64,000 nt of DNA from Gemmatimonadaceae bacterium (GTDB taxonomy: Bacteria; Gemmatimonadota; Gemmatimonadetes; Gemmatimonadales; Gemmatimonadaceae): the NCBI GenBank assembly GCA_039924785.1, contig JBDTAE010000164.1, positions 4,101-68,100 of the forward strand, written 5' to 3'. The position numbers and the translations under genes are program-made. The notes under the pieces are model-generated. The model made no database searches, was not told the DNA's origin, and worked only from the letters and a program-made list of their open reading frames with translations. Below, piece after piece: positions 1 to 63,137 of the stretch; position 1 is the stretch's first letter; every line of letters starts with the position of its first letter.

Positions 1-127
1 ACAAGTCTGAACGTTGGGGATTGTACAGGACTGTCGGCGAGAACGTTTTGAACGACGATTCCAGTCTCGCGAGCCTCACCGTCCACCGCGTGCTTCCGGC
101 GATCGATCGCGTGTGGGGCCAGGCAGG

Positions 128-416
128 CTGGCGGTCAGATTAGCCGCGAATTTCGTACGCTGGCGGTGCGTTTAGCCGCGAATGTCGCCGACACCGGGGG
201 CGGAGAACCGCGGAAAGAACACAAAACCTCTGATGAACGTCCGCCGTCTCAGTCAGAAATGATGAAATAACGAACTTCGGCGCGCCGAGAGGGCACTTTC
301 TTAGTTCTTACAGCACTCCGTGGTGTTCCACGGAACCCGCGGAATGCCGCGGAATAAAACCAGAAAGAGAATCCGTGCTTTTCGCAGTTTCATTTCCGCG
401 GAGTTTCCGCGGCTAA
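128..416. repeat. Intergenic repeat island of the CCGCGGAA / TTAGCCGCGAAT family
   Basis: Two ~32-bp tandem units (128-159 and 160-191, about 24/32 identical), each with CTGGCGGT and TTAGCCGCGAAT. CCGCGGAA at 208, 337, 347, plus variant CCACGGAA at 328. Inverted TTCCGCGG at 394 and 405. CCGCGGCTAA at 407-416 is the reverse complement of TTAGCCGCGG. No ORF of 60 aa or more lies in 1-428. Confidence 0.8.
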
Positions 417-428
417 TCTCACGACAGC

Positions 429-1598
429 CTACGCGCGATTCACCAACCGGTGAATGAGCGAATCGATCATCGCCGCATCGGGAACGCTCCCTTGCGCGAT
501 TCGCGGCGAACCGCCGCCGCGGCCGCCGACCGCCGCCAAACGTTCCTTCAACACCTTTCCCGCGTCGACCCCTGAGTCCTCCGAGGCAGCAAAGAGTACC
601 GACGGCGGCGTCGTCAACGCACCCACCACGACTGTCTTTGGCAGGGCAAGCGACGCCTGTGCGAGATCTCTAATTTCGCCGATCGAACCAGCGTCGCGGA
701 CCACGATCGTGCGAAACCCGCTCGCGTCGGGCGTCGCTGCATCGTACCGTGCCCGCGCGCGAAAGCCTGCCAAGTCGCGCTCCAACTTTCGCTTCGCGTT
801 CTCCGCCTCCTTCGCGCGCTCCTGACTGGCGGCCACCAGCGGCGCTGCGTCCTCGATTGACGCCGACAGCGAGGTGGCAACGTGCGTCAACGCCTCGAAA
901 TCGTTTCGCGCCCGTCGGAGCGCGCGCGTTCCGCACACGAACTCCACGCGAGTCGCCTTTCGAATTTTCTCAACCGACCGAATCATCACTGGACCAAGCT
1001 CCGCGGTCGTCCGAACGTGCGTTCCGCCGCACGCGCTCCGGTCCACGCCCTCGATGTTCACGACCCGCAGCGTGCCGTCGCGACCGGATGCCTTTCGCAG
1101 GCCGATCGCGGTCGCGGCGTCCTCGACCGTGATCGTTACCGGCCGCGCTTCGCCGACAATCGCGTTCGCGCGTTCCTCGGCGGCAACGAGCTTGGCGCGC
1201 GACAGAGAATCCGTCTCGACATCGACCGTCGAATACTCGTCGCCGAAATGCACGCTGACCGTCTTGAAGCCGAACAAATCCTCGAACACCGCGGACAGCA
1301 AATGTTGCCCGGTGTGCTGCTGCATGTTGTCGTAGCGACGCGTCCAGTCCACCACGCCGTTCACGGTGCCGGCCGCGCCTAGCTTCGCCGCGAGCACGTG
1401 GCCGATTCGAGAATCCTCATCGATGACGTCCACGACCTGCACGCCGCCGAGGGTGCCGAGGTCGTGCGGTTGTCCCCCGGAGGTGGGGTAGAACGCCGTC
1501 TCGTCGACGTACACCGTCAACCCGTCAGCGCTCACGCCCACGACTGACGCGGTAAACTCGGCGCGATAAGCGTCCGTGTAGTAGATCCGGTTGGTCAT
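429..1598 (-). CDS. alaX: AlaX-L type alanyl-tRNA editing protein (Ser/Gly-tRNA-Ala deacylase)
   Basis: 389 aa. Zinc motifs HTGQHLL (HxxxH) and CGGTHV (CxxxH) of the Thr/Ala-tRNA synthetase second additional domain. C-terminal DHHA1-like region ending GGRGGGSPRIAQG. ATG at 1598. Confidence 0.85.
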   Translation of the reverse strand: MTNRIYYTDAYRAEFTASVVGVSADGLTVYVDETAFYPTSGGQPHDLGTLGGVQVVDVIDEDSRIGHVLAAKLGAAGTVNGVVDWTRRYDNMQQHTGQHLLSAVFEDLFGFKTVSVHFGDEYSTVDVETDSLSRAKLVAAEERANAIVGEARPVTITVEDAATAIGLRKASGRDGTLRVVNIEGVDRSACGGTHVRTTAELGPVMIRSVEKIRKATRVEFVCGTRALRRARNDFEALTHVATSLSASIEDAAPLVAASQERAKEAENAKRKLERDLAGFRARARYDAATPDASGFRTIVVRDAGSIGEIRDLAQASLALPKTVVVGALTTPPSVLFAASEDSGVDAGKVLKERLAAVGGRGGGSPRIAQGSVPDAAMIDSLIHRLVNRA

Positions 1599-2576: not shown

Positions 2577-2680
2577 GCCGATCTGTACGACAGAAAGCGT
2601 GCCACACGGATCAGGAAAACTGAACGCTAAGAATTGCTCACACCGACCGCGACCAGGAATCGATTCGCCAACTTGACTCC

Positions 2681-3427
2681 ATGGCCTATTCTCCAGACGA
2701 TTCGTATAGCTCCAACACCGGATTGATGCCCGACGCAGAACTGGTGCTGATCATCGACGATGAGCCGCAGATTCGTCGTGCTGTTCGTGACGCGCTCCGC
2801 GACGTCACGGCGCGCGTCGACGAGGCGGCGAACGGCTCGGCGGGAATCGAGTCGGCCACGACTGGCCGGCCGGATCTCGTCGTGCTGGATCTCGGGCTGC
2901 CCGATATGGCCGGTGTCGACGTCTGTCGCGAAATCCGGCAGCGGTCCGCGGTGCCGATCATCGTGCTGTCGGCGAGACATTCGGAGCACGAAAAAGTTGA
3001 TCTTCTGAACGCGGGGGCCGACGACTACGTCACGAAGCCCTTCAGCGTGCTCGAACTTGCGGCGCGCGCGCGGGCGCAGATTCGCCGCGCCAAGACGCTG
3101 GCTGCCGCGACGAGCAGCATGGCTCCGGTGACGATCGGCGGCCTGCTCGTAGATAGCGTGACGCGAAAAGTCACCCGTAACGGGATCCAGCTTCATTTGA
3201 CCCCGATCGAGTGGCAGATTCTCGCCACGTTGATTTCGTCCGCCGGCCGCACGCTCACGCACCAGCAGATTTTTGACGCGGTGTGGGGACGGCAGTTCGG
3301 GAGTCCGCAGCAGTATCTCCGTGTCCACATAACGAACTTGCGTCGCAAAATCGAACTCGATCCGGCGGCACCGCAGATCATCATCACCGAGCCGGGCGTC
3401 GGATACCGCGCCGAGCTTTCGACCTAG
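2681..3427 (+). CDS. OmpR/KdpE-family response regulator
   Basis: Receiver domain (LIIDDE..., DLVVLDLGLPDMAG, KPF) followed by a winged-helix output (LTPIEWQIL...GVGYR). The start could instead be the Met at about 2726. Confidence 0.9.
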   Translation: MAYSPDDSYSSNTGLMPDAELVLIIDDEPQIRRAVRDALRDVTARVDEAANGSAGIESATTGRPDLVVLDLGLPDMAGVDVCREIRQRSAVPIIVLSARHSEHEKVDLLNAGADDYVTKPFSVLELAARARAQIRRAKTLAAATSSMAPVTIGGLLVDSVTRKVTRNGIQLHLTPIEWQILATLISSAGRTLTHQQIFDAVWGRQFGSPQQYLRVHITNLRRKIELDPAAPQIIITEPGVGYRAELST

Positions 3428-23131: not shown

Positions 23132-23140
23132 TCGCCAGCC

Positions 23141-24283
23141 GTGATCTCCCTGCAAGGCGTGAGCGCGAAGGCTGGCGACTTTCGCCTCGTCGATATCACG
23201 ATCGACGTACCGCAAGGCGAATACGGCGTCGTGATTGGACCGGCCGGGTCTGGCAAGACCACGTTGCTCGAAACGATTGCCGGAGTGATTCGAACGACCG
23301 CCGGGCGAATCATCGTCGCGGGCGCTGACGTCACGGCGGCCGCGCCCGAGCATCGTCGCCTCGGCATCGTGTATCAGCACGCGTATCTGTTTCCGCATCT
23401 CACTGTGCGAGAGAATATCGAATACGGTGCGTCGACGGCCAAGTCTGCGGCGGACATCACCGCCCAATTCGAGCTCGGCCCACTGGCGAATCGCTCGATA
23501 CACTCGCTGAGCGGCGGCGAACGACAACTCGTCGCGATCGCCCGAGCGCTGGCTCGTCAGCCGGACGTTCTTCTGTTGGACGAACCGTTCAGCGCGCTCG
23601 ATCCGCGTACGCGCGACCGCGCGCGTCGAATGCTGCGGAGCATTCATAACCAGCGTCGATTCACCGTTCTTCAAGTCACGCACGACTTTGTGGAAGCAGG
23701 CACGCTTGGAAACGTCGCGATCGTGATGGACGCCGGGCGCGTGCTGCAGCAAGGAGATCCGTCCAACGTATTTACAAAACCTGCATCGGCGTATATCGCG
23801 GATTTTGTTGGCGCCGAGAATGTGTTCGCCGGTACGGTCCGCGCGAGCGCGAGCGAGCACGATACCACGGAACACGATATCGCCGAACACGACACCAGCG
23901 AACGCAACCCCAACGGACGCGACTCCACCGAACGCGCGGGCGGAGCTGACGGTCAGAATCGAGCCGCAGAATTTTCAACGGGCGCGTTGCGATTTTACGT
24001 AGTTGGTGAAGTCACCTTTGGCGCAGCACATGCCGTGATACGCGCGGAAGAAGTCGCCCTTTCCGCGACGCGGAGTACGCGGGCCGAATCGTCGGTGCAG
24101 AATCAGTTTGCCGGAAAAATCGTCGAGATCCTGAATTCTGGCCCGCTCGCGCGAGTGGCGGTGAACGCGAGCGGAACGATCATCGTCGCGATGGTTACCG
24201 CTCGCTCGGTGCGCGACTTGGAGCTGAGAGCCGGATCCGACGTCGTCGTCGGGTTCAAAGCCACCGCGGTTCACATTTGTTGA
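23141..24283 (+). CDS. modC: Molybdate/tungstate ABC transporter ATPase with C-terminal TOBE/Mop domain
   Basis: GTG start. Walker A GPAGSGKTT, LSGGERQ, LLLDEPF. TOBE-like C-terminus (NQFAGKIVEI...VVVGFKATAVHI). An unusual repeat linker is listed separately. Confidence 0.85.
   Translation: MISLQGVSAKAGDFRLVDITIDVPQGEYGVVIGPAGSGKTTLLETIAGVIRTTAGRIIVAGADVTAAAPEHRRLGIVYQHAYLFPHLTVRENIEYGASTAKSAADITAQFELGPLANRSIHSLSGGERQLVAIARALARQPDVLLLDEPFSALDPRTRDRARRMLRSIHNQRRFTVLQVTHDFVEAGTLGNVAIVMDAGRVLQQGDPSNVFTKPASAYIADFVGAENVFAGTVRASASEHDTTEHDIAEHDTSERNPNGRDSTERAGGADGQNRAAEFSTGALRFYVVGEVTFGAAHAVIRAEEVALSATRSTRAESSVQNQFAGKIVEILNSGPLARVAVNASGTIIVAMVTARSVRDLELRAGSDVVVGFKATAVHIC
23855..23944 (+). repeat. 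Degenerate in-frame 15-bp tandem repeat (about 6 units) inside the modC linker
   Basis: Units GAGCACGATACCACG / GAACACGATATCGCC / GAACACGACACCAGC / GAACGCAACCCCAAC / GGACGCGACTCCACC / GAACGCGCGGGCGGA encode EHDTT-EHDIA-EHDTS-ERNPN-GRDST-ERAGG. Confidence 0.8.
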
Positions 24284-24899: not shown

Positions 24900-26171
24900 A
24901 TGCCGAACTTCAGGTTGTCTTCCGCTGCCCTCGTCATCGTCGCCGCATCGCTTGGCGCGCAGGGCACGCCGCCGATCTCCAACGCCAAAGTCCGCGCCGC
25001 GCTGGACATGATCAAAGCCGATAACGCATGGACGCTTCAGCAGCAGGTCGAGCTGACTCGAATTCCAGCGCCGCCATTCAAGGAAACGGCGCGCGGTCTG
25101 GAGTACAAAAGGCGTCTCGAAGCGCTTGGTCTGCGCAACGTTCGAGTGGATTCGGTCGGGAACGTCATCGCCGAGCGGAAGGGAAGCGGAACTGGTCCGA
25201 CCGTCGTGATCGCCGGGCATCTCGATACGGTGTTTCCCGAAGGAACCGATGTCACCGTAAAGCATGACGGCGACAAATTGCGCGCACCCGGTATCGGCGA
25301 CGACGATCGTGGACTCGCCGTGGTGCTGGCGATCGCTCGGGCCTTCGAAAAGACGGGGCTTCGAACGAACGGCACGGTGTACTTCGTTGGCGACGTCGGC
25401 GAGGAAGGACCAGGGAACCTTCGCGGCATGCGTCAGCTGTTCAACAAGGAGCTCAAGGGCAAAGTCGACTATTTCATCTCGGTCGATGACGCCGGACTCG
25501 GCATCGCGAGCCGGGCCGTTGGCAGCTATCGATATAGAATCTCTTACAAAGGCCCTGGCGGGCACAGTTACGGCGCGTTCGGAATTCCCAATCCAATTCA
25601 CGCGCTGGGCCGCGCAATTTCGGGGATCTCCGACATTCAGGTTCCGACCATCCCGAAGACGACGTTCAATGTCGGCATCGTCGAAGGCGGAACGTCAGTC
25701 AACTCGATCTCCGCGACAGCAACGATGGAAGTCGACATGCGATCCGAAGACGCGGCGTCGCTCGCGGCCGTCGACGTAAAGGTGCAGCGCATCATCCGCG
25801 AGGCACTGACCGCCGAGAATGCGCGATGGACGAGCCCCGCGGCCGCGAAAGCGAAGCTGACGTTGACGGTCGACACAATGGGTATTCGCCCGACCGGCGC
25901 CCAATCCGACAACGCCCCGATCGTCCAAAGCGCACTGGCGTCGGCCAAGGCGCTGGGGTTCACGTCGTCGACGACTGCCTCCAGCACCGATGCCAATCTT
26001 CCGATCAGCCTCGGAATTCCCGCAATTCGAATTGGTGGCGGCGGCAACTCAGAGGGCGCTCACTCCCTTGGCGAGTCGTACTCCGATGGTCCAACCGGTT
26101 ACGTCGGCGTGCAGTGGGCCGCGCTGCTGGTTGCGATGCTCGCCGGCGTTCATGCGGGAGTGACGCCGTGA
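24900..26171 (+). CDS. M20-family metallopeptidase (peptidase T / deacylase-like), secreted
   Basis: 423 aa. Signal peptide, HLDTVF, GIGDDDRG, GEEGPGNLRG metal-ligand blocks. Confidence 0.85.
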   Translation: MPNFRLSSAALVIVAASLGAQGTPPISNAKVRAALDMIKADNAWTLQQQVELTRIPAPPFKETARGLEYKRRLEALGLRNVRVDSVGNVIAERKGSGTGPTVVIAGHLDTVFPEGTDVTVKHDGDKLRAPGIGDDDRGLAVVLAIARAFEKTGLRTNGTVYFVGDVGEEGPGNLRGMRQLFNKELKGKVDYFISVDDAGLGIASRAVGSYRYRISYKGPGGHSYGAFGIPNPIHALGRAISGISDIQVPTIPKTTFNVGIVEGGTSVNSISATATMEVDMRSEDAASLAAVDVKVQRIIREALTAENARWTSPAAAKAKLTLTVDTMGIRPTGAQSDNAPIVQSALASAKALGFTSSTTASSTDANLPISLGIPAIRIGGGGNSEGAHSLGESYSDGPTGYVGVQWAALLVAMLAGVHAGVTP

Positions 26172-26191
26172 GCGCGCCGTCGGCCGCTGTT

Positions 26192-27590
26192 ATGAAACGC
26201 TCATTGGCGTCGCTCGCCGTTCTCCTCGGCGCGGGGTTTCCGCGCGCGCGCAGCAGCAGTCGACCGAAACATTTCACCAGCTCGGCCACGCCATTCTCCG
26301 CGAACTGATCGAGACGAACACCACAGCGTCGAGCGGAAATACGTCGGTCGCAGCGGAGCAACTCGGCGAACGGTTCAAAGACGCCGGGTTTCCAGCCGCC
26401 GACATCCAAGTCATTGGGCCAACAACGAAGAATCGCAACATCGTCGTTCGCTATCGCGGTACCGGCAAAGCGAAGCCGATTCTTCTGCTCGCGCATCTCG
26501 ACGTCGTTGAGGCGAAGCGTGAGGACTGGACGTACGATCCGTTCAAACTGATGGAGAAGGACGGCTACTTTACGGGCGCGGTACGCAGGATGTCAAAGGC
26601 GCCGCGACGACGCTGATTACCACGCTGTTGCGTCTCAAGACCGAGGGCTGGGTTCCCGACCGCGACCTCATCCTCGCCCTGACGGCCGGCGAAGAAGGCG
26701 GAATGCCGTATGTCGGCGCCGAGTGGCTGGTCAAGAATAAGAGAAGTCTCATCGACGCCGAGTACGCGATCAACGTCGATGCCGGCGGTGGAGAGATCGA
26801 TCACGGCAAGCACACGTTGTTCGACGTGCAAGCCGCGGAAAAGGTCTATCACTCCGTGGCGCTCGTGGTGAAGAATTCAGGAGGACACAGTTCGCTGCCG
26901 CGGAAGGACAACGCGATCTACTCGCTCGCGGCGGCCCTCGACCGCATCGCGAAGTTCGAGTTTCCGGCAAAGCCAAACGACGTCGTGAAAGCGTACTTCG
27001 CGAAGGCGGCCGTAGCGGCGAGTCCGACCGTTGCGGCCGATATGCGCACCGTCGCAACGTCGTCGCTTTCCGCGAGCGCCGCTGCGATTGCCCGGCTGAG
27101 CGCCTCGCCGCTGTACAACGCCAACCTTCGCACGACGTGCGTCGCGACGCAACTCGAAGGCGGGCACGCACCGAACGCGCTTCCGCAAACAGCGCGAGCG
27201 GTCGTGAACTGTCGCATGTTGCCCGGCGAAGATCCCGCCGCCGTTGAGAAGACGCTTGTGCGAGTCATCAACGACACATCCGTTCACCTCTCGCCAATCG
27301 ACACCGCGATTCAAAGTCCGCCGTCGCCACTTCGTCCGGATCTGTTCACCGCAATCGGCGCGTCGGTGAAAGCCATCTTTGGTCCACTACCGATCGTGCC
27401 GACGATGGAAACGGGCGCGACCGACGGGCTCTACCTTCGCAACGCGGGAATTCCGGTGTACGGCTTGAGCGGCCTGTTCATCCCGATCGACGACAATCGA
27501 ATGCACGGAAAGGATGAGAGAATCATCGTCGTCGAATTCGACAAGGCACTCGACTTCACGTACGACCTCTTGAAGCGCATCACACGCTGA
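26192..27590 (+). pseudogene. M20-family carboxypeptidase paralog interrupted by two -1 frameshifts (or sequencing errors)
   Basis: Three consecutive frames carry one protein. Frame a: MKRSLASLAVLLGAG. Frame b: VSARAQQQSTETF...HLDVVEAKREDWTYDPFKLMEKDGYFTG. Frame c: (R)GTQDVKGAATTLITTLLRLKTEGW...GEEGG...GGHSS... to 27590. The shifts sit at the G4 run 26233-26236 and the G3 run 26574-26576; one extra G at each restores the frame. Confidence 0.8.
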
Positions 27591-42165: not shown

Positions 42166-42204
42166 GACACGGGTCGGCGATAACCTAGCACAAGGAAGAT
42201 CTAC

Positions 42205-42267
42205 GGCGGAATCCGCGGATTCCCGCGGAATGATCCGCGTGGTTCGTGGACTCAGCGGGCTCCGCGG
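42205..42267. repeat. CCGCGGAA-family repeat cluster with a perfect 16-bp palindrome
   Basis: GGAATCCGCGGATTCC at 42208-42223 is a perfect palindrome. CCGCGGAA at 42223, TCCGCGTGG at 42234, TCCGCGG at 42261. It lies immediately upstream of the TldD/PmbA remnant. Confidence 0.85.
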
Positions 42268-42270
42268 CAA

Positions 42271-42680
42271 ATGCTGATCATGAACACCACGTCGACAGGC
42301 TGGACTTCCGCCGGCATTCTCTCGCCACCGACCCTCAGAAAATGTCTTCATCATGACACAGCGTCGTCTGGCGGAACGAAGAGTACCGAAGAACTCATCG
42401 CTGGATGCCGGCGCGGCATTCTCGTCACGCACTTCTTCTACATTCGCTTCCTCGATCAACGAACCATTTTGCCGACCGGCCTCACGCGCGACGGCACGTT
42501 CCTCATCGAGAAGTGCCAGGTCACGCAGGCGGTGAAGAATTCCGATGGAGCGAAAGTCCGCTGTGTCTGATCAGCAAGATCTAAGAACTCGGTCGCGCGG
42601 AGCGGACGGCGACGGGTCAGATGATGCCGGCGATTCGCGCGAAGAACTTCAATCTCTCTTCACCGTCGGACGCCGTTTAG
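42271..42680 (+). pseudogene. 5'-truncated, frameshifted and nonsense-interrupted TldD/PmbA-family metalloprotease remnant
   Basis: Only the C-terminal part is present: GGTKSTEELIAG..RGILVTHFFYIRFLDQRTILPTGLTRDGTFLIEK.QVTQAVKN. It continues in the -1 frame as FRWSESPLCLISKI-TAA(42582)-ELGRAERTATGQMMPAIRAKNFNLSSPSDAV-TAG(42678). The shift lies at the TT run near 42539-42541. Confidence 0.7.
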
Positions 42681-42741
42681 CATCCGCTCATTGTGCCGTC
42701 GCTTCGGCGAGCCGATGAGAACTCTTGACCGCGAGCGACAG

Positions 42742-44325
42742 CTACGGTTTGCAGTTCGGGTACCACACGGGCGTGAATCCATCGGCGAGCAATCGCACCA
42801 CGCTGATGCCGGCGTCGATCACGCCGGCCATGTGATTGAAATCCGCCAGATTGACATCATCGTTCGACTGGTGGTAGTCGGCGTGCAGGTCGAACGAGGA
42901 TAGCGTATGCGCCGGAATTCCCATGCGCGCAAACGCGATGTTGTCGCTGCGTGAAAAGAAGCTCTGATCGGGGCGCGGGTCCTTCACGATTGGCAGTCCG
43001 TGCGCGGCGAGCGTGTCGCCGAGGGTCGAGCGCTCGAATCCGGTCAACCATGCTTTCCCCGGCCCGCCCGCGAGCGCGTCGGGACGATCCATCATCTCGA
43101 TCTCGAGGTTGGCGGCCATCTGCGAGAGCGGACGAACCGGATGCGCGATGTACCAATTGGTGCCGAGCAGACCGACTTCCTCGCCGGTCGTCGCGATGAG
43201 GACGACAGTGCGCTTGGGCGGCGGTCCAGCCTTGAGCGCGCGCGCGATCTCGATCACGGCGGTCGTCCCCGAGGCATCGTCGTCCGCGCCGTTGTAGATC
43301 GAGTCAGTCGAGCCGGCGGGCGGCATAGCGATGCCGAGGTGGTCGTAATGCGCGTCGACGAGAATCACTTGGTTCTTCATCGTCGGATCCGATCCCTCGA
43401 CAATACCGACGACGTTGCCGCCGGTCGCCGGCCGCTCGACGAACTTTACAGAACTATGAATCGTTTTTCCGGCGGCGCCCTTCGCGAGGCCCGTGATCGG
43501 CGCGCCGAGCAGAACCGTTGCCGCGTGCGAGGTGATCGATACCGTGGCAGCCGCAGGCGCCATGGTCGGCGCGGGTGCCGACGGATCCTTCACGAACGCC
43601 GTCCCCGTGTGCTTCGCCCCCCACACCGTGCGCGCCGACAGCTGGTCGCCTTCAATTGTCGCAATACCGGCGGCGTCAGCAAACGCGTTGTTGCCGCCCA
43701 GCCCACCACGTCCGCCGCGACCACCACCGCCGCCGCCGCCGCGCGGAGCCGCAACAACCGGCGCGGCATCCGCCGGAAGATCCCGGCAGCTTGTTGGCGC
43801 TGGCGGTCGGCCGCCACCGCCAGCCGCGCCACCTCCGCGCGCGCCCGTCGCTATCGGTGCCGCGGAAAAGATGACAAGCTTGCCGCGAACCTGATCGGGC
43901 GTGAGAGGATCAGGGTCATTCCGCATTCCGCCGTAAATCACGGCGACGCCGTCAAGCGAGCGCGGTTTCACGCGGCCGGCCGTCACGGCGAAGTCCGATC
44001 CCGCGCGCAGCGTCGTTCCGTCGACGGTAATCGTCGATGAGGGATCGGTCATGCGCGTTGCCATTGGGACGTGCTGAAAAAATCCGCTGTCGCCAGCGGG
44101 CGTCAGACCCGCGGCTTGGAATTGCGACGCGATGAACTTTGCTGCGCGCATCGAACCGCGCGTTCCAGTGCCGCGACCTTCCATGGAATCGTGCGCGAGC
44201 GCCGTGAGAATGAATTTTATGTGGTCGGGTGTGGCGACCGACTTGGTTGATTGCGCGCTCAGAACGTTCGCGCTGAGAGTGAGACCGAGCGCGGCTGCAG
44301 TGCGCAAGAGAGCTGGTGGTTTCAT
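42742..44325 (-). CDS. Secreted M28-family aminopeptidase with PA domain and Gly/Arg-rich insert
   Basis: ATG at 44325, signal peptide. M28 blocks (VDAHYDHLG, GADDDASGTTAVIEIAR, TGEEVGLLGT, ...HQSNDD). Insert RGGGAAGGGGRPP...PRGGGGGGGRGGRGGLGG. Confidence 0.85.
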   Translation of the reverse strand: MKPPALLRTAAALGLTLSANVLSAQSTKSVATPDHIKFILTALAHDSMEGRGTGTRGSMRAAKFIASQFQAAGLTPAGDSGFFQHVPMATRMTDPSSTITVDGTTLRAGSDFAVTAGRVKPRSLDGVAVIYGGMRNDPDPLTPDQVRGKLVIFSAAPIATGARGGGAAGGGGRPPAPTSCRDLPADAAPVVAAPRGGGGGGGRGGRGGLGGNNAFADAAGIATIEGDQLSARTVWGAKHTGTAFVKDPSAPAPTMAPAAATVSITSHAATVLLGAPITGLAKGAAGKTIHSSVKFVERPATGGNVVGIVEGSDPTMKNQVILVDAHYDHLGIAMPPAGSTDSIYNGADDDASGTTAVIEIARALKAGPPPKRTVVLIATTGEEVGLLGTNWYIAHPVRPLSQMAANLEIEMMDRPDALAGGPGKAWLTGFERSTLGDTLAAHGLPIVKDPRPDQSFFSRSDNIAFARMGIPAHTLSSFDLHADYHQSNDDVNLADFNHMAGVIDAGISVVRLLADGFTPVWYPNCKP

Positions 44326-44426
44326 GCGTCGATGATGCACGGTGGACGTGGCAAGATCAATGGCTGGACATGCGGGCGGTCGCGAGAGAGCTTCTTCGAT
44401 CCTCAACCTTCGAGAATATCGCCCTC

Positions 44427-62397: not shown

Positions 62398-62643
62398 ATG
62401 CCCGTATTCGAATACAAATGCCGCGCATGTTCGCACAAGTTCGAAGCGCTCGTGCGTGGCACCAAGGTTCCGAGCTGTCCGAAGTGCGTAAGCCCGGACC
62501 TGGATCGCCTGTTGTCGATGCCGGCGGTTCGGTCTGAGACTACCACCGCGTTAGCAATGAAGGCGGCCAAGCGTCGCGACAAGAGCCAGGCGAGTGACGC
62601 GGATCGCGCGCAACGAGAGTACGAGGCACATCACGACGACTGA
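62398..62643 (+). CDS. FmdB-family CxxC zinc-ribbon protein
   Basis: MPVFEYKCRACSHKFE...SCPKC signature. Confidence 0.85.
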   Translation: MPVFEYKCRACSHKFEALVRGTKVPSCPKCVSPDLDRLLSMPAVRSETTTALAMKAAKRRDKSQASDADRAQREYEAHHDD

Positions 62644-62663
62644 GCGCAGCCTGCGAAATGAGA

Positions 62664-62702
62664 GAGAGCCACGTTGACTTCGGTCGTCGTGGCTCTTGTC
62701 TT
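62664..62702 (+). terminator. Probable terminator after the FmdB-family gene
   Basis: GAGAGCCACG ... CGTGGCTCTT stem with an inner GAC-TTCG-GTC (UUCG loop), followed by the moderately U-rich GTCTTGG. Confidence 0.55.
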
Positions 62703-62707
62703 GGACA

Positions 62708-62883
62708 GCTGGCGGCGAGATCAGCCGCGGAGTCCGCGGAATTGTGAACGGCGAAACTCCGCGGATGCAGGAGATTCGTGCACCCCGACTAATTGTTTAC
62801 CCGGCGGCGAGTGCCGGCAAGTTAGCCGCGGAATCCGCTGAGCCCGCGGAACACCGCGGAACACCGCGGAACACCGCGGAATG
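62708..62883. repeat. CCGCGGAA-family repeat island including a 10-bp-phased tandem array
   Basis: GCTGGCGGCGAGATCAGCCGCGGAGTCCGCGGAA at 62708-62741 is homologous to 127-150. CCGCGGA at 62759. TTAGCCGCGGAA at 62822-62833. CCGCGGAACA x3 plus CCGCGGAATG at 62844-62883, with starts at 62844, 62854, 62864 and 62874. Confidence 0.9.
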
Positions 62884-62975
62884 AGTTGGTCGGCCCGATC
62901 GACGGTAACTCGGCGCGGAACTTGGGCTCTTTTGCCGCCGGAGTTGACTGGCGTTCGCCACAGTCCCGCAAATGC

Positions 62976-63003
62976 CAAAAAATGCGACGCCAACATTGGC
63001 GTC
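62976..63003 (-). terminator. Possible terminator for the minus-strand gene ending at 63138
   Basis: On the minus strand, the GACGCCAATGTTGGCGTC hairpin is followed by GCATTTTTT. It lies about 135 nt downstream of the stop. Confidence 0.45.
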
Positions 63004-63137
63004 CCGCGCAATCAAAGACAACACAGACATGAGCTTGGCACTGGCCTCTCGAGCGCCGAGGAAGCCGATCCGCGCTCGTCGCAGTTTCCTTCCGCCAAAC
63101 TCCGTGGCTAAGGCGCGCGGGCCTGTTACCGGAAGAA

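Follow-up and report, generated by a model that had tools for sequence, protein, structure and literature searches.

A period-10 CCGCGGA array in a Gemmatimonadaceae bacterium and its probable place in a family of small foldback elements

Described repeat systems resembling the array

The bacterial repeats that come closest to the feature described here are MITEs and the REP/REPIN/BIME repeats. MITEs, like the Correia/NEMIS elements of Neisseria and the ERIC/IRU elements of enterobacteria, share with the present repeats a small size (~70–310 bp), a non-coding character, terminal inverted repeats that fold back, an intergenic location beside gene ends with presence/absence polymorphism, and the possible carriage of transcription signals, in our case a terminator. 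Correia elements duplicate TA. In contrast to MITEs, no target-site duplication was detected here and there is no known parent IS; the arms consist of four direct repeats at 9–10 bp instead of a unique terminal sequence of 20–30 bp, and the interiors of different copies are unrelated. The REP, REPIN and BIME repeats, on the other hand, resemble the present ones in being extragenic, located at gene 3′ ends and able to form hairpins around a G+C-rich palindromic core, in occurring as inverted doublets (REPIN-like, as in island 3 below), as mosaic clusters (BIME-like, as in islands 1 and 4) and also singly. They leave no target-site duplication, and none was seen here. They have a GTAG or GTGG head, versus a TAG head here, and they differ from the present repeats in that the latter have stems of only 6–7 bp, asymmetric direct-repeat units and no RAYT gene in the window, i.e., the whole stretch of 64,000 nucleotides that was analyzed.

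Inverted arms or ends made of several short direct sites are known from Tn7 (TnsB sites), Mu (MuA sites), IS21 (terminal repeats) and the eukaryotic Foldback elements, and in them, as here, the number of sites varies between arms and copies. However, the sites of Tn7, Mu and IS21 are ~19–22 bp long, versus 8–10 bp here, and these elements encode their own transposases, while the likeness to Foldback elements, which are eukaryotic, is architectural only. Repeats in direct orientation with a period close to one helical turn are also found in iterons, OmpR/PhoB-type operators and ParR-parC centromeres; unlike the present array, these are located next to a promoter or to a rep or par gene, and they do not form inverted arm pairs around insertions. 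Concerning two other classes that the original prediction had discarded, its judgement was upheld: the array is no DnaA-box cluster, and it is no CRISPR, as its period is 10 bp with 2-nt ‘spacers’, versus the 23–50-bp repeats and unique spacers of CRISPR. Gemmatimonadota are known mostly from metagenome-assembled genomes, and a literature search (the motif, and Gemmatimonadetes MITEs) found no published account of dispersed repeats in them.

The array and its intergenic spacer

The array had been predicted as four copies of the octamer CCGCGGAA, 10 bp apart on the plus strand at 62844, 62854, 62864 and 62874, and these positions proved exact. The same was true of the upstream copy, TTAGCCGCGGAA, which begins at 62822 and has its octamer 18 bp 5′ of the array, and of the CCGCGGA cores at 62725, 62734 and 62759. 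Two further plus-strand copies of CCGCGGAA occur at 62826 and 62734. What had been overlooked is a degenerate unit, CCGCTGAG, at 62835, with which the block comes to six units, as well as an inverted partner arm at 63066–63115 and clusters of the motif at 1–430 and 42199–42271. Tandem Repeats Finder delimited the array as 62826–62881 (period 10, 5.8 copies, score 77), the only period-10 array with at least three copies in the window.

The array lies in a 494-bp spacer (62644–63137) between the stops of two convergent genes, and the non-coding island was confirmed; the open reading frames across island 4 are short, overlapping and in several frames, and none of them is coding-like by the GC3 call. 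The two terminators that had been said to flank the array were also found, i.e., the hairpin at 62666–62700 and the minus-strand terminator at 63003–62986, with the array in between. The hairpin is the terminator that the convergent gene pair shared ancestrally, and it lies outside the element described below; a homologous hairpin is the sole content of the spacer in three relatives (L030, L031 and L032). The terminator at 62986–63003 serves the convergent minus-strand gene and is kept in two other relatives (L057 and L058), the terminator segment being 82% identical between them. A near-identical strain, represented by the Logan contig L001, carries the same array. It differs from the window at only 3 of 910 aligned bases, all 3 of them located in or beside the stem of the Zn-ribbon terminator hairpin (62675–62690; 615–630 in L001).

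The window contains 19 copies of the octamer versus 7.6 expected, a count reached by none of 100 shuffles, and 12 of the 19 are within the 1,498 bp of three non-coding islands. The islands have 8.0 copies per kb and the remainder of the window 0.11, which makes the islands 72-fold denser (Poisson P ~1e-18). From the shuffles and the island enrichment, it can be said that the excess is not due to chance. The other putative gaps of the window, amounting to 7.4 kb in an approximate list derived from a crude GC3-based gene call, contain no copy. Altogether, the non-coding location of the array, its periodicity of ~10 bp, its palindromic core and the recurrence of the motif nearby were all borne out.

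Arms, elements and orthologous loci

An arm is composed of a (T)TAG head, after which come about four CCGCGGA(A) units at a spacing of 9-9-10 bp. The nine arms taken from the window and from two relatives fit one four-unit alignment (TAGCCGCGGAA-TCCGCGGAG-nnGCGGAAT-GCCGCGGAT), and an nhmmer profile was built from them. The profile matched eight sites in the window, all of them in the three non-coding islands (island 1, 1–430; island 3, 42199–42271; island 4, 62705–63115). Three of the eight are outside the training set (E = 7e-5, 5e-3 and 0.045). No match was obtained in the coding DNA of the window, nor in 55 kb of sequence from relatives that are more distant. Of 12 arms, 7 have TAG ahead of their first unit; the head reads GTAG in L057 alone, whereas in the window it reads TTAG or TCAG. 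The spacing of 9–10 bp between units recurs in the arms of three lineages, and the unit is asymmetric: an A is conserved on the 3′ side of CCGCGG, but not a T on its 5′ side. The features of the three islands are summarized in Table 1.

Table 1. Positions of the array, the arms, the elements and their flanking features in the window
Feature	Position	Strand	Remarks
Zn_ribbon_8 gene	62398–62643	+	Its stop bounds the spacer on the left
Hairpin terminator after the Zn_ribbon_8 gene	62666–62700	+	Read from sequence
Extra 97-bp module	62703–62799	+	Window lineage only; carries arm c3
Arm c3	62719–62767	+	GAGATCAG-CCGCGGAG-TCCGCGGAATTG...TCCGCGGA; profile E = 9.6e-9
Island-4 complete left arm	62820–62883	+	Profile E = 1.5e-8; unit spacing 9-9-10-10-10
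Parts of the left arm	head TTAG 62822–62825; U1 62826; U2 62835	+	U1 CCGCGGAAT; U2 CCGCTGAGC; then U3–U6
Array of the original prediction	62844–62883	+	CCGCGGAACA x3 + CCGCGGAATG; units 3–6 of the island-4 left arm
Intrinsic terminator	62986–63003	-	GACGCCAA-TGTT-GGCGTC, then a T run; inside the island-4 element
Island-4 degenerate right arm	63066–63115	-	CCTTAGCCACGGAGTTTGGCGGAAGG...CGCGGATCG on the minus strand; profile E = 8.6e-4
Convergent ORF	from 63138 onwards	-	Its stop bounds the spacer on the right
Island-1 arm matches	170–215 (+), 324–356 (+), 418–369 (-)		Arm profile
Island-3 arm matches	42199–42242 (+), 42271–42231 (-)		Arm profile, E = 2.8e-7 and 5e-3
Island-4 arm matches	62719–62767 (+), 62820–62861 (+), 63112–63066 (-)		Arm profile
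Island-1 full element, ~306 bp	125–430		24-nt repeats AGGCTGGCGGTCAGATTAGCCGCG at 125–148, inverse at 430–408
Island-3 short foldback, 73-bp doublet	42199–42271		Plus-strand arm 42199–42242 faces minus-strand arm 42271–42231

The arms always occur as facing inverted pairs that bound 70–310 bp of non-coding DNA, with elements of about 73 bp (42199–42271), 296 bp (62820–63115) and 306 bp (125–430). The 64-kb window holds three loci and eight arms. The island-4 left arm has as its unit 1 the octamer within TTAGCCGCGGAA and as its unit 2 the degenerate CCGCTGAG. The terminal inverted repeats were compared with those of 100 shuffles, where the maximum score was 26: the L057 element has repeats of 46 nt with a score of 42, and island 1 has repeats of 24 nt with a score of 31. 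The folds of the whole elements pair their termini (z = −4.9 for island 1 and −5.9 for L057). Apart from the repeat units, the elements of islands 1 and 4 have interiors that cannot be aligned with each other.

Concerning island 1, its terminal repeat (125–148) is tandemly duplicated at 159–187, and the element has also an inner right arm (418–369, minus strand) and a diverged four-unit array at 318–356. At 127–187, the outer repeat GCTGGCGG...TTAGCCGCGAAT was seen to be duplicated in tandem (32 bp, 1.9 copies, 86% identity), which means that the left end of the island-1 element is doubled. The top direct-repeat family of the window pairs 127–187 with 62708–62736 (GCTGGCGG-N3-GATYAGCCGCG); the outer head of the 97-bp module, GCTGGCGGCGAGATCAGCCGCGG, matches the island-1 termini, and the module is a member of repeat family D1. 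At the other end of island 1, the last two bases of the right repeat fall in the TAG stop (429–431) of an AlaX-like gene (429–1598, minus strand), and the element abuts this coding sequence with no spacer.

Concerning island 3, the foldback is located 34 nt past the stop of an NHL-repeat gene. On its other side, the window contains at 42280–42741 (ATG ~42334) the remnant of a TldD/PmbA-type gene, with a broken frame and most of the gene missing. The start of the remnant (ATGACACAGCGTCGTC...) and the region upstream of it align with relatives, and the corresponding genes of L072–L074 are intact TldD/PmbA genes. The downstream M28 peptidase gene is on the same strand in L074 and inverted in the window (42742–44406). 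The foldback is placed at the edge of this rearrangement.

The loci orthologous to island 4 were found either empty or filled. The ankyrin-repeat protein encoded upstream in the window, with which some of the relatives were compared, is 100% identical to one that NCBI assigns to a Gemmatimonadaceae MAG. The Gemmatimonadaceae L030, L031 and L032 (73–79% ankyrin-protein identity) have the same gene order, with only 43–75 bp from the Zn-ribbon stop to the convergent stop, a single shared hairpin and no motif. In L057, L058 and L060, with Zn-ribbon proteins at least 90% identical, the element is in the equivalent place and has a left arm of four units, a right arm and, inside, a terminator; in the window, the right arm occupies a position equivalent to those of L057 (1664–1618) and L058 (895–849). 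These three relatives lack the 97-bp module (62703–62799), whose absence from L057 and L058 was seen in the alignment. The island-3 foldback is absent from L072 and L073 (86%) and from L074 (83%), where the flanks are homologous and the profile gave no match. Absence of the array from orthologous loci, which the original prediction had counted as evidence against it, thus applies to the relatives at 73–79% identity and not to the closest ones. The occurrence of filled and empty sites across relatives indicates that the family has insertions of different ages, and on sequence comparison it is taken to mean that the island-4 element entered in an ancestor of this clade.

The number of units, whose variation had been proposed as a check, differs between relatives, with six here versus four in L057 and L058. 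In the window arm, three units are identical over 30 bp without mismatch, and the orthologous units differ from each other. The identity of the three units points to recent slippage: CCGCGGAACA x3 is a recent tandem expansion, in which slippage explains the two extra units only and not the block itself. The extra units would have arisen by replication slippage between the 10-bp repeats, a process that hairpins would favour, given the self-complementary core.

The arm is conserved at the rate of coding sequence (89% versus 88% for CDS; 84% versus 83% for CDS). Compared to the arms of L057 and L058, the left arm of the window shows 84% identity, equal to that of the neighbouring CDS, while the interiors of the elements are 43–68% identical. 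Conservation of the arm at CDS level with decay of the interiors indicates constraint or homogenization. Arm conservation could instead reflect a host function.

Beyond the window, three phased octamers were searched for in 185,579 species-representative genomes, which gave 28 loci in unrelated phyla. These loci have different 2-nt spacers and flanks, and each consists of one array, with no inverted partner arm at a distance; they were for these reasons rejected as homologues and judged to be independent minisatellites. The hosts of these CCGCGGAANN arrays (L002–L029) include Streptomyces, Kitasatospora, Planctomycetota, Burkholderiales, Bifidobacterium and Phocaeicola, and the exact CCGCGGAACA unit is carried by L013 and L014. 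In viral contigs, the target pattern was found 2 times, the palindromic control 0 times and the non-palindromic control 2 times, all of them small counts. The 18-mer GCCGCGGAATCCGCGGAG gave seven matches in viral contigs, none of them with units 3 and 4, and was rejected; three of the seven are homologous to one another and lie in apparent coding sequence. In metagenomes, a scan for head plus hairpin, AGATYAGCCGCGGAN{1,4}TCCGCGGAA, gave no matches, and the 24 matches of the looser pattern GCTGGCGGNNNGNTYAGCCGCGRA had no shared context and were attributed to chance. Nothing was retrieved by blastn against plasmids and phages. An autonomous element with the ends of the family was not found either, the matches of the exact-pattern scans of metagenomes and viral contigs being chance-like.

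Interpretation of the array

Considering these results, it seems reasonably probable that the array forms the subterminal block of repeats within one of the arms of a small foldback element without coding capacity, which is MITE/REPIN-like and belongs to a family confined to a narrow lineage of Gemmatimonadaceae. The feature is real and previously undescribed, yet it belongs to a familiar class and is not a new regulatory device. The family was found to be short and non-coding, with terminal inverted repeats and with filled versus empty orthologous sites, and the island-4 element (62820–63115) has the terminator ancestrally shared by the gene pair on one side and the convergent gene's stop codon on the other. 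Pfam scans of ~46 open reading frames of the 64-kb window found no transposase, RAYT, integrase, Rep or Par, and the matches are housekeeping only (e.g., two-component systems, Ser/Thr kinases, SUF, ABC transporters and peptidases). At the termini of island 1 and L057, no target-site duplication was seen by eye, and the divergence between empty and filled sites is too great for the junctions to be placed. The tRNA scan of the window found none, so there is no tRNA-linked integration site in it. As no transposase, RAYT or target-site duplication was found, we infer the mobilizing mechanism: the units may be the recognition modules of a family-moving enzyme encoded elsewhere. They can be read as phased double-stranded direct repeats, i.e., as multiple transposase-binding sites, or alternatively as single-strand hairpins, as with REP/RAYT and IS200/IS605-type enzymes. 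For the host, the element is probably neutral or mildly useful, as it supplies the minus-strand gene with a terminator. As a repeat family that can be searched with a profile, it provides a strain-typing marker through its variable number of units, it flags likely assembly break-points and it is a handle for finding the enzyme that moves it; otherwise, the practical consequences are limited.

Within the mobile-element reading, the sub-case of REP/BIME-type repeats moved by a RAYT (Y1, HUH) transposase is worth weighing, although we regard it as unlikely. According to it, a pair of neighbouring units would be a short G+C hairpin after a TAG head, and the alternating clusters would be REPIN/BIME-like mosaics. 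An enzyme acting on single-stranded hairpins would explain the lack of target-site duplication. The original prediction had held that the array is not what a REP hairpin would produce, and in this it overlooked that CCGCGG is self-complementary, so that a nested hairpin is also among the folds of the array (−24.3 kcal/mol, z = −5.5, for the plus strand; −26.2 kcal/mol, z = −4.4, for the minus strand). A similar figure was obtained for the island-1 array at 318–356 (−26.7 kcal/mol, z = −6.3). Among unit pairs and arrays, the folding z ranged from −2.8 to −6.3, and the folds of head plus hairpin gave −12.6 kcal/mol for c5 and −10.7 kcal/mol for c3. In addition, the period of 9–10 nt equals a stem of 6 nt plus a loop of 3–4 nt, so helical phasing is not its sole explanation. 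Of the 10-bp geometry that had been claimed, the direct repeats at ~10 bp stood, whereas the helical phasing is unproven, as the length of stem plus loop fits equally. It should be kept in mind that a 10-bp period around a self-complementary hexamer is alone no sign of phased protein sites.

The predicted hairpins of the array (−24 to −26 kcal/mol, z about −5) are in agreement with REP/BIME-type repeats, as are the extragenic location at gene 3′ ends, the TAG before the first unit in most arms, which is GTAG in L057, and the mosaic character of the clusters, with their unrelated interiors. The fact that the interiors of islands 1 and 4 are unalignable means that these could be mosaic BIME-like clusters and not copies of one transposing unit. 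One compensatory change was also found, the pair CCGTGG/CCACGG at 318–333, but by our own estimate the chance is roughly 1 in 4 that two CpG transitions would produce it. Against REP/BIME-type repeats, there are at least four uncompensated substitutions that break pairing (unit 1 of L057, unit 2 of the window, unit 2 of the island-3 right arm and unit 1 of the window right arm). The asymmetric unit, CCGCGGA(A) with no conserved upstream T, behaves as a direct repeat, the short stems of 6–7 bp are below those of classical REPs, and the window lacks a RAYT.

A more novel interpretation, which we consider quite unlikely, is that the array belongs to a bacterial foldback with ends made of phased sites of 8–10 bp and an undescribed recombinase or transposase, or else that the arms have been co-opted by a host protein. 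Co-option would explain that the arm evolves as slowly as coding sequence. If true, either of them would represent an architecture of the ends for which bacterial MITEs and REPs offer no described example.

It appears improbable that the array is a helically phased set of sites for a host or plasmid-type protein (iterons, operator or enhancer, OmpR/PhoB-type sites, ParR-type centromere) acting as double-stranded DNA on replication, partition or transcription. The direct asymmetric units at 9–10 bp across arms and lineages, and the maintenance of the arm at CDS rate while interiors decay, are consistent with such sites; an OmpR-family response regulator gene is present at 2624–3427, which is only a coincidence. 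However, it is mainly the genomic context that makes the iteron or operator reading of the original prediction unlikely. The array is placed between two convergent terminators, no sigma-70-like promoter accompanies it, no promoter-like site was found in any of the three islands, the window has no Rep, Par or initiator gene, and the motif is absent from all its other putative intergenic and promoter regions. Moreover, the arms always form inverted pairs around DNA that is missing in relatives, and the number of units is not constant (4 versus 6).

An element acting at the RNA level, such as a 3′-end stabilizer, a component of a small RNA or an additional terminator of the convergent genes, is very improbable. 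The strong folding of both strands, the location of all the islands at gene 3′ ends and the bona fide terminator for the minus-strand gene within the element would agree with it. On the other hand, the array is located past both terminators, where transcription is least likely, and no U tract follows it. No relevant Rfam match was obtained with gathering or permissive (E ≤ 1) thresholds, promoters were absent from the islands as said above, and the substitutions that break pairing are uncompensated.

Finally, a meaningless local minisatellite, born by slippage of a chance 10-mer, is hardly credible: the three identical units, the independent occurrence of similar CCGCGGAANN x3 arrays with differing spacers and flanks in 28 genomes of many phyla, and the frequency of the pattern in viral contigs, no higher than that of composition-matched controls (2 versus 0 and 2), could suggest it, but slippage accounts for just two units, and the four-unit block with 9-9-10 spacing is found unexpanded, in inverted pairs, in relatives and at two other loci of the window.

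Two other observations concern coding regions of the window. A 15-bp tandem repeat, CGACACCACCGAACG (~5 copies, 74% matches), is located at 23854–23936, inside an ABC-transporter/TOBE gene (23132–24283), and presumably corresponds to a repetitive 5-residue linker. The second of two adjacent genes for M20-family peptidases (26164–27590) is split in overlapping frames (26164–26616 and 26523–27590), which could be due to a frameshift or an assembly error.
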